DNA from: Promethearchaeota archaeon
Lineage (GTDB): Archaea; Asgardarchaeota; Hermodarchaeia; Hermodarchaeales; Hermodarchaeaceae
Assembly: GCA_048939245.1 (NCBI GenBank)
Contig: JBHLPR010000063.1
Location: forward strand, 1-12,986
Direction: 5' to 3'
Length of the DNA stretch: 12,986 bases
Shown here: positions 240-3,030 of the stretch, piece by piece
How positions within the stretch are numbered: the stretch's first letter is position 1
Layout: each line of letters starts with the position of its first letter
Program-made: the position numbers and the translations under genes
The notes under the pieces: model-generated
What the model was told of the DNA's origin: nothing
Databases searched by the model: none
What the model saw: the letters and a program-made list of their open reading frames with translations, nothing else

Positions 240-1382
240 TTATTTGAGAGTGATTTCATCTTCTTTGAGTAGGAAATCCTCTAATTTGTCTCGGGCTTTC
301 TCTCTACGTTTCTGGTGCTCTGTGAGGAACTTGGTGGCGAAATCTATACAAATGCTCTTACATTCTCCACAGAGCATATCTCCGCTTCGACACCGTTGCT
401 CTAAAGCGTCAAGCTTGTCTTGCTCTGGAATAAAGACTAATTGATAATTCGCAAAAATCGAACAGATCTCAGGTTGCCCTCCGAGCTTCCGTTGTTCAGC
501 AGCATTCCCTCGTCCTCCCGTGAAGGCATTTTGGAGCTTCTTCTTGATTACTTTCGGTGGGTCCACGGTAAATAGGGCTGAGTCAGGTTCAGAGGCTGAC
601 ATTTTCCCACCTTGCTGTAGTCCCTGGAGAAACCTTGAGTGTATGATGCCTGGTTTCAAATACCCGAGTTTGGGTAACACATCTCGGGCGGCCCGAAAAT
701 GGGCATCTTGGTCGATAGCAAGGGGAATCACGCAGGGTACGTTATGCCCCACAAGGATAGAATGGAGGAAGGCAGGAACAGCTTGAAAGCTGGTAAAGAA
801 GATGGACCCGATGTTATTTGAATTTGTGAAACCAAAGATTGCCTTTGCAGTGGAAAACGTGATGCGCTTAGCTACTTGAATCGCCAGAGGGTAGATCGTC
901 CTTGCGTGGAGCGAATCCACGATGATATGTGTATTCTTGGGATCAAAGCCTGTAGCAATGAGATCTAAGGCATTCTCCTTAGCGTAGTACTGTGCTTGGT
1001 CGAGTTCTAGCTCGAATTTGAAGAGAAATTTTTCGTCATCTGTGAGTTGGAAGTAATAGGGGCAGTTGAACTTGTCTTGCATCCATTTGGTGAAGATGAA
1101 CTGGGTAAGGTGTCCAATGTGGGTGTGGCCGCTGGGACCCCGACCGTTGTATAAATAAAAGGGATTGCCTTTATCGTATTCATCGAATACAAAGTTCATG
1201 TCACGGTGGCTGAAGTAGATGCCACGTTTCAAAAGGTAATGCAATTCTCCGGTATACTTCTTGAAGCGTGCAAGCAGTTTGTCATCGATTGGTTCAGTAC
1301 CAAATTGCTTAATCAGCTTCGCATAGTCCACATCGCCTTTTACTTCCCATGGGGTCACAACAAACTCATTATCGCGAGGCAT
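240..1382 (-). CDS. trpS: tryptophanyl-tRNA synthetase (archaeal/eukaryal type)
   Basis: N-terminal VTPWEV; GRGPS..HIGH; AIDQDAHFR; KMSAS; AFTGG; C-terminal C-x23-C-x6-C-x2-C motif. Confidence 0.97.
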   Translation of the reverse strand: MPRDNEFVVTPWEVKGDVDYAKLIKQFGTEPIDDKLLARFKKYTGELHYLLKRGIYFSHRDMNFVFDEYDKGNPFYLYNGRGPSGHTHIGHLTQFIFTKWMQDKFNCPYYFQLTDDEKFLFKFELELDQAQYYAKENALDLIATGFDPKNTHIIVDSLHARTIYPLAIQVAKRITFSTAKAIFGFTNSNNIGSIFFTSFQAVPAFLHSILVGHNVPCVIPLAIDQDAHFRAARDVLPKLGYLKPGIIHSRFLQGLQQGGKMSASEPDSALFTVDPPKVIKKKLQNAFTGGRGNAAEQRKLGGQPEICSIFANYQLVFIPEQDKLDALEQRCRSGDMLCGECKSICIDFATKFLTEHQKRREKARDKLEDFLLKEDEITLK

Positions 1383-1491
1383 GATTCTTCACAACTCCGT
1401 TTTTCATGTATTCAATTTTATACTGTCTCTTCTCGATTATACACTTGGTAAATCTTTGTTTCGTACTGGCTAAGTTCTTAAAAGTTGAGGC

Positions 1492-1572
1492 GGTAGCAGT
1501 GTTTACTAGGCGTGGAAAAGAGAACAGGCTATGGGTTCGGCCAAAAATAATCGCCTAACATCCTTCACTACC
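1492..1572 (-). ncRNA. candidate structured leader RNA or sRNA upstream of trpS
   Basis: Nested stems on the minus strand: GGUAGUG(1572-1566)/UGCUACC(1498-1492), UGUUAGGCG(1560-1552)/CGCCUAGUA(1512-1504), apical GGC/GCC. Four G-U pairs would be A-C mismatches on the plus strand. The 5' end lies ~23 nt downstream of TTTATATA. Confidence 0.5.
1529..1561 (-). CDS. putative 10-aa leader peptide MLGDYFWPNP
   Basis: ATG TTA GGC GAT TAT TTT TGG CCG AAC CCA TAG, preceded by SD-like GGTAGTGA, on the same strand as trpS and ~150 nt upstream of it. Confidence 0.4.
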   Translation of the reverse strand: MLGDYFWPNP

Positions 1573-1594: not shown

Positions 1595-1616
1595 TATATA
1601 AATCATATTCATGAAT
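1595..1616 (-). promoter_or_regulatory. TATA box (TTTATATA, 1602-1595) with adjacent palindrome ATTCATGAAT (1607-1616)
   Basis: Consensus archaeal TATA oriented toward trpS; predicts a TSS near 1572. Confidence 0.55.
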
Positions 1617-2884: not shown

Positions 2885-3030
2885 GGGGTCATGGCCTAAC
2901 CAGGTATGGCAACGGGCTCCAGAAGAAGCCACCAGACAGATTAAGCTGACCGGACATCCGGGATGACGATGTTCTGGAGCGACCTGGCGACACCCGTAGG
3001 TTCTGGGTTCAAATCCCAGTGACCCCACCA
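2885..3030 (+). tRNA. trnW: tRNA-Trp(CCA) with a 37/38 intron and encoded CCA end
   Basis: Acceptor GGGGTCA/TGACCCC, A73, CCA; D stem GCC/GGC; anticodon stem ACGGG(2912-2916)/CCCGT(2993-2997); loop CT-CCA-G|A; T arm CTGGG-TTCAAAT-CCCAG. Confidence 0.96.
2923..2991 (+). ncRNA. 69-nt pre-tRNA-Trp intron with box C/D guide RNA features
   Basis: D' CTGA (2946-2949), hairpin CCGG-ACAT-CCGG (2950-2961) and C' ATGACGA (2963-2969) form a K-turn. TTCTGGAGC (2972-2980) is the exact complement of GCTCCAGAA (2916-2924). Terminal C and D boxes are degenerate. Confidence 0.8.

Follow-up and report, generated by a model that had tools for sequence, protein, structure and literature searches.

How archaea match the levels of their aminoacyl-tRNA synthetases to tRNA charging is, to our knowledge, largely unknown; we know of no archaea with T-boxes and of no leader-peptide attenuator of a synthetase gene shown in archaea. 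In the window analyzed here, the whole 12,986-nt stretch of a Hermodarchaeia genome, a very short open reading frame with a Trp codon lies ahead of trpS. The original prediction was that Trp-tRNA supply tunes trpS through this ORF by transcription attenuation. We find that the single Trp codon of the mini-ORF, which is conserved, is the best candidate for a sensor, while the attenuation mechanism is unsupported. We instead propose, with a probability of about 65%, a Trp-tRNA-sensing +1 frameshift at UUU_UGG that would be followed by translational coupling to trpS. Between trpS and a divergent membrane-protein gene starting at 1721 lie 338 nt. The gene and the first elements of its leader are as follows.

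240-1382, minus strand: trpS, tryptophanyl-tRNA synthetase, 380 amino acids (PF00579, E = 4.7e-22; homologues are named tryptophan--tRNA ligase)
1395-1398, minus strand: GGAG, the Shine-Dalgarno (SD) sequence of trpS
1595-1602, minus strand: TTTATATA, the TATA box of the trpS leader promoter
1567-1572, minus strand: GGUAGU, the predicted mRNA 5' end (from its distance to the TATA box) and the 5' strand of a helix, P1, that pairs with 1497-1492
1561-1529, minus strand: the 0-frame mini-ORF, ten codons, MLGDYFWPNP, with its ATG at 1561-1559 and its TAG at 1531-1529

The TATA box lies where it had been predicted, and the mini-ORF with its Trp codon exists exactly as described, all of its coordinates being correct. 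In the alignment of the genus and the family, as well as in two more distant leaders (L250 and L252), TTTAWATA is followed by GGUAG with an unchanged spacing of about 22 nt. The trpS mRNA probably starts at about 1572, where a GG (1572-1571) lies 22 nt from the TATA box, and from this predicted start the mini-ORF would have a 5' UTR of 11 nt. A closer TATA-like sequence, TATAAAA (near 1422-1416), had been raised as a caveat; it is not conserved, relatives are GC-rich at that position, and a conserved second promoter at about 1420 is not supported. The SD of trpS, conserved as GGAGNUG, precedes the start codon by 8-12 nt and can pair with the 16S tail.

A tRNA-Trp(CCA) gene, missed by ARAGORN and scored by Rfam at 53 bits, lies on the plus strand at 2885-3027 of the window and is interrupted after position 37 by an intron of about 70 nt. 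The tRNA-Trp gene of several relatives (L004, L009 and L011-L015) adjoins the trpS leader directly upstream in divergent orientation, an arrangement that links the candidate sensor, the synthetase and tRNA-Trp. The gene for the alpha subunit of Trp synthase (trpA, PF00290) was not found over the cut-off in this genome, which is 88% complete, and the organism may be dependent on imported tryptophan.

We compared 22 trpS leaders, taken from relatives whose TrpRS is 67-91% identical. These leaders came from 15 species genomes of the same family (two genera, 76-91% TrpRS identity), one metagenome contig and five more distant lineages, the last reached through TrpRS homologues of 83, 78, 72, 71 and 67% identity. 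In 22/22 leaders the first seven codons read AUG NNA GGC GNU NNU UUU UGG, about 11 nt after the TATA-spaced start. The ATG, the frame and the TGG at codon 7, whose conservation in relatives had been put forward as the check to make, are thus kept throughout, and the worry that so short an ORF arose by chance falls away. The synonymous variation that had been expected along with the kept frame is not seen: the third positions of codons 1-7 are invariant (7/7), while codons 2, 4 and 5 vary at their first or second positions. In the trpS genes of the same 15 genomes, 7/359 third positions are invariant, including 0/90 four-fold sites and 2/89 two-fold sites. Third positions that stay fixed while the first two positions of some codons vary indicate constraint on the RNA and not on the peptide. 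The mini-ORF stops at codon 8, 10, 11, 14 or 20, and the residues after the Trp vary. A TnaC-type arrest peptide, which would call for W, D and Pro-stop at fixed spacing, or any other function at the level of the peptide, is not supported: the stop and the residues after the Trp vary, and the conservation is at the nucleotide level.

The core motif is found once per genome, before trpS, in 16/19 genomes of the order, and the extra matches that were checked, in G003 and G004, fall within coding regions. The non-family matches checked in a set of 400 Asgard species genomes lacked the ATG and are attributable to chance, as are 119/120 of the matches listed in a scan of metagenomes. One leader (L251:474-520) carries a tandem duplication of GAUGAAAGGC that creates two AUGs, of which the second alone is in frame with UUU_UGG.

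Three features make up a two-frame layout:

1541-1547, minus strand: U_UUU_UGG, the proposed shift site, with the P-site UUU at 1546-1544 and the sensor Trp codon at 1543-1541
1550-1556, minus strand: AGGCGAU, a Shine-Dalgarno-like element, separated from the shift codon by 3 nt
1369-1542, minus strand: the +1 frame, read by skipping the U of UGG, with 57 sense codons and then a UAA 11 nt inside trpS

UUUUUGG is invariant in 22/22 leaders. A UUU followed by a further U, as in every leader, would allow tRNA-Phe to re-pair on UUU one base forward; the fifth U of the run is invariant yet unneeded for a +1 slip. Each mini-ORF holds one UGG and no run of regulatory codons, which bears out an earlier caveat that there is only one Trp codon. 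Upstream, the SD-like element is invariant as A-GGC-G-N-U and reads AGGCGGU in genus 2. Compared with the complement of the 16S 3' tail of two relatives, GGAUCACCUCCU, both versions match at 6/7 positions, and the mismatch is the invariant C, whose conservation is not explained by a pure anti-SD function. The 16S genes themselves hold irregularities: in L289 (G006:C71:619-4212) the 16S rRNA match spans about 3.6 kb compared with a 1.48-kb model, and in one relative's 16S there is an insertion just before the 3' terminal helix, which suggests introns or insertions in Hermodarchaeia rRNA genes.

Beyond the shift site, the +1 frame stays open for 32-61 codons after the UUU in 22/22 leaders, and its stop always falls close to the trpS start. 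Measured from the first base of the start codon, this end lies between 21 nt upstream and 22 nt downstream: most leaders have a UGA or UAA that is 8-11 nt into trpS, and the frame ends in AUGA overlaps in L251 and L253, and just before the SD or AUG in L250, L252 and L014. Counted from the shift site to 22 nt before trpS in 21 leaders (934 codons), the stops in frames 0, +1 and -1 number 86, 0 and 71. Dinucleotide shuffles gave P values of 0.016-0.14 per leader; for six lineages taken together, between which the middle of the leader does not align, the value is about 2e-8. A further lineage (L294-296), fetched after the hypothesis had been formed, fits the two-frame pattern. The same frame is also free of Trp codons, with UGG occurring 15, 0 and 6 times after the shift site in frames 0, +1 and -1. 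As a control, an open frame of 45-70 codons that ends at the start codon was found in 2/76 other archaeal trpS loci. A -1 shift was rejected, with the -1 frame closing after 5-37 codons.

No AUG, GUG or UUG in the +1 frame is conserved among the leaders. Just behind the mini-ORF AUG a UGA or UAG shuts the frame, which leaves the mini-ORF as its sole conserved entry. The +1 frame is out of frame with trpS and does not encode TrpRS, so any effect of a shift on TrpRS would need translational coupling. In one lineage (L011 and L298-L300), the leader is shortened, with 107 nt separating the mini-ORF AUG and trpS, and lacks the purine tract described below; its +1 frame of 32 codons still reaches a UGA 8 nt inside trpS. 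In L294-L296, an automatic call places a 66-aa ORF over the +1 frame (locus positions 811-1011), with an ATG that lies downstream of the TATA box but ahead of the predicted transcript start. This call, which obscures the two-frame layout, is probably an artefact of annotation.

Taken together, this layout suggests how the leader could act. Ribosomes would initiate at the AUG at 1561 and read M-x-G-D-x-F. Once UUU occupied the P site, the leader's single Trp codon would come next. When charged tRNA-Trp is plentiful, UGG would be read and translation would end at a stop 1-13 codons further on, about 140 nt before trpS. When charged tRNA-Trp is scarce, the A site would stand empty and peptidyl-tRNA-Phe could re-pair one base forward, from UUU to UUU, a slip possibly aided by the SD-like AGGCGAU 3 nt upstream. 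The new A-site codon would always be GGN, and reading would go on in the +1 frame, which, being free of stops and of Trp codons, would deliver the ribosome to the ribosome-binding site or start codon of trpS. There, the shifted ribosome would reinitiate or open the site, and more TrpRS would be made. The net effect would be a negative feedback loop on tRNA-Trp charging. Translational coupling by termination and reinitiation has been shown in archaea (PMC6728339) and requires an overlap or a very short distance there (PMC6728339, PMC10666635).

A scan of the same genome with the leader as a template revealed a second instance ahead of proS:

G000:C79:11083-11215 (locus L301, about 384-516), plus strand: AUG AUA GGU GUU CAC UUU CCU, the proS leader

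The downstream gene was identified as proS by TIGR00408, over the cut-off. In this leader AGGUGUU takes the place of the trpS AGGCGAU, and the UUU is followed by C, so that a slip would place the tRNA on UUC, also a Phe codon; the fifth U of the trpS run is absent. The leader is kept in 16 family genomes, in which the stops in frames 0, +1 and -1 number 36, 0 and 27, and its +1 frame stays open as far as the SD or AUG of proS, where it ends in most cases in an AUGA overlap. In these 16 genomes the putative sensor codon is CCU or CCC, a synonymous variation. In a sequence-level test, UGG stood at the A-site position before trpS in 22/22 leaders, and CCU or CCC before proS in 16/16. At this level, the trpS and proS leaders are one template in which the putative sensor codon differs according to the gene's own amino acid.

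A strict template scan of the genome returned seven matches, of which those before trpS and proS alone are credible; a match on C21 was rejected as the normal start of a transporter gene. A crude look at the other 14 synthetase genes located in the genome showed no such leader. Two genome-wide scans for a mini-ORF plus a long shifted frame were set aside, swamped by false positives, one example of which lay inside an aconitase-family gene.

The RNA of the leader also has conserved pairing, with the following elements:

1492-1497, minus strand: GCUACC, the 3' strand of P1, pairing with the 5'-terminal GGUAGU
1514-1528, minus strand: a pyrimidine tract directly after the 0-frame stop, the 5' strand of a long-range helix (RNAalifold, genus 1)
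1423-1434, minus strand: the purine tract GAGAAGAGACAG, the 3' strand of the same helix, about 85 nt downstream of the pyrimidine tract

P1 shows compensatory changes in L002, genus 2, L250, L252 and L253, with the variants GGUCGU/ACGACC, UGUGG/CCACA, GGUAC/GUGCC and GUAUUGAAG/CUUCAAUGC. Within the genus 96% of P1 cells are paired, and the helix is broken in one metagenomic leader (L166). The pyrimidine:purine helix has a 7-bp core that is nearly always paired and extensions that covary; within the genus, 87% of its cells are paired compared with 40-61% for slid partners, and its covariation score was unmatched by 500 shuffles. RNAalifold applied to all leaders together returned almost nothing, and a single closed RNA domain was considered and set aside. 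In folding, the trpS SD was not more paired than the rest of the leader, its unpaired probability being about average, which leaves sequestration of the SD unsupported. By eye, we found no conserved C/D-box or K-turn, TRAP-like repeats, tRNA-Trp mimicry or T-box-like pairing to the local tRNA-Trp.

The leader might instead be a structured cis-regulatory RNA, such as a riboswitch or a tRNA- or protein-binding leader, to which the AUG, the UGG and the open frame are incidental. Conservation of the core at the nucleotide level, the covariation of P1 and of the pyrimidine:purine helix and the tRNA-Trp gene next to the leader in several relatives are all consistent with such an RNA. We nonetheless consider it unlikely. 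Searched over the whole window, Rfam placed no family in the leader at E values up to 1, and a structured RNA cannot account for zero stops and zero UGG codons in one frame across leaders that cannot be aligned. Nor does it fit with a proS leader in which the template recurs and the sensor position holds a Pro codon.

Alternatively, the +1 frame might encode a small protein of about 60 amino acids co-translated with trpS, with the UGG sensing nothing. Constitutive frameshifting, slippage of RNA polymerase on the U5 run or a non-canonical start would then give access to the frame. The frame is long and always open, gene callers annotate the 66-aa ORF in one lineage, and transcriptional loss of one U from U5 would yield the same fusion. 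Five U, however, is a short run for transcriptional slippage, and the +1 peptide is not conserved between lineages and has no conserved start codon. On this view it would also be a coincidence that, before trpS and proS alike, the slippery codon is followed by one cognate to the downstream synthetase. We regard this explanation as improbable.

Classical leader-peptide attenuation, in which RNA pairing, and with it termination at a U tract, would depend on whether a ribosome pauses at UGG or stalls at Pro-stop, is very improbable: it can draw on a translated-looking mini-ORF with a Trp codon, on alternative or crossing helices (P1 and pyrimidine:purine) and on a CUUUU(A/G)A conserved within one genus, but it has only one Trp codon per leader to work with, its U tracts are not conserved as U runs, and it leaves unexplained why one frame runs stop-free to the trpS start in seven lineages. 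The pyrimidine/U tract noted after the ORF is present at 1528-1514, and what is conserved there is a helix-forming pyrimidine strand that reads UUCUCUUCU in most relatives instead of a U run. The second UUUU, at 1483-1480, is likewise present and is limited to one genus, the motif being absent from genus 2, L250-253 and L294. TnaC-like stalling at Pro-stop is not supported: Pro-stop occurs in only 12/22 leaders, and others end in LYL, LIA or HF before the stop, or in a stop directly after the Trp.

The frameshift reading thus remains the one that we prefer for trpS, and the proS leader extends it. We lean, by a small margin over an even chance, toward a family of Asgard leaders that sense tRNA charging through the ribosome and can be retargeted by swapping a codon. 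Each would be a mini-ORF that combines one cognate sensor codon with a slippery codon and an SD-like element, and in each a +1 slip at the starved codon would lead into a stop-free frame coupled to the synthetase start. The trpS and proS leaders of this Hermodarchaeia family would be two members. If the frameshift reading is right, the leader would be a compact and easily mutated sensor, with which the question could be put to a direct test in the prokaryotes most closely related to eukaryotes. That a single codon (UGG versus CCY) retargets it would also yield a clear comparative prediction for other synthetase genes.

We found no published description of tRNA-charging sensing by such a leader. 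Its separate parts have counterparts in known systems, of which the nearest is bacterial prfB, where CUU_UGA_C and an upstream SD-like element direct a +1 shift (PMC5009743). As proposed for the trpS leader, prfB sets a slippery P-site codon before a slow A-site codon. The AGGCGAU element, a candidate stimulator, has the 3-nt spacing of the prfB stimulator from the shift codon, and its match to the 16S tail is imperfect. In both, the decoding rate would be tied to the gene's own product, with a +1 shift raising that product in a homeostatic loop. The slow codon of prfB, however, is a stop read by a release factor, whereas in the trpS leader a charged tRNA would decode it as a sense codon; the +1 frame of prfB encodes the protein itself, whereas that of trpS is a non-conserved leader ending at the gene start; and prfB is bacterial, whereas the trpS leader is archaeal.

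The proposed slip itself resembles hungry-codon +1 frameshifting, as in the E. coli starvation work of Gallant and at the CUU_AGG_C of Ty1 in yeast (PMC5009743), in which limitation of the A-site aminoacyl-tRNA is likewise combined with re-pairing of the P-site tRNA. In Ty1 a constitutively rare tRNA sets the gag:pol ratio, whereas the trpS leader would be a dedicated sensor. According to the review of Atkins et al. (2016), starvation-induced hungry-codon frameshifting has no known natural example with a function (PMC5009743), and frameshifting in E. coli pheL was judged incidental (PMC3082878). For Archaea, a 2021 review lists only a single programmed frameshift as demonstrated, and its direction is -1 (PMC8211752). 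If true, our proposal would be the first natural regulatory use of hungry-codon frameshifting. Eukaryotic antizyme and regulatory upstream ORFs offer a further parallel, the one in using a +1 frameshift as a metabolic sensor and the other in controlling a main ORF from upstream. The ligand of antizyme is polyamine, its frameshift product is a functional protein, and tRNA charging is not sensed.

Two bacterial systems are comparable in what they regulate. In E. coli pheST/pheM, trpL and pheL, as is proposed for the trpS leader, the behaviour of ribosomes at cognate codons of a short translated leader sets downstream expression. These attenuators use runs of regulatory codons and terminator/antiterminator hairpins and act at the level of transcription, whereas the trpS leader has one codon and a second conserved frame, and its output is probably translational. 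T-boxes, such as that of Bacillus trpS, bind uncharged tRNA directly and without a ribosome; the trpS leader has no Rfam match to a T-box, and we found in it no conserved structure with a UGGN bulge. In what they do, the two would be alike: T-boxes sense tRNA charging, precede synthetase genes and are retargeted by one codon swap, their specifier codon being paralleled here by the putative sensor codon, UGG in trpS and CCY in proS. If our reading is true, these leaders would be the functional counterpart of the bacterial T-box.
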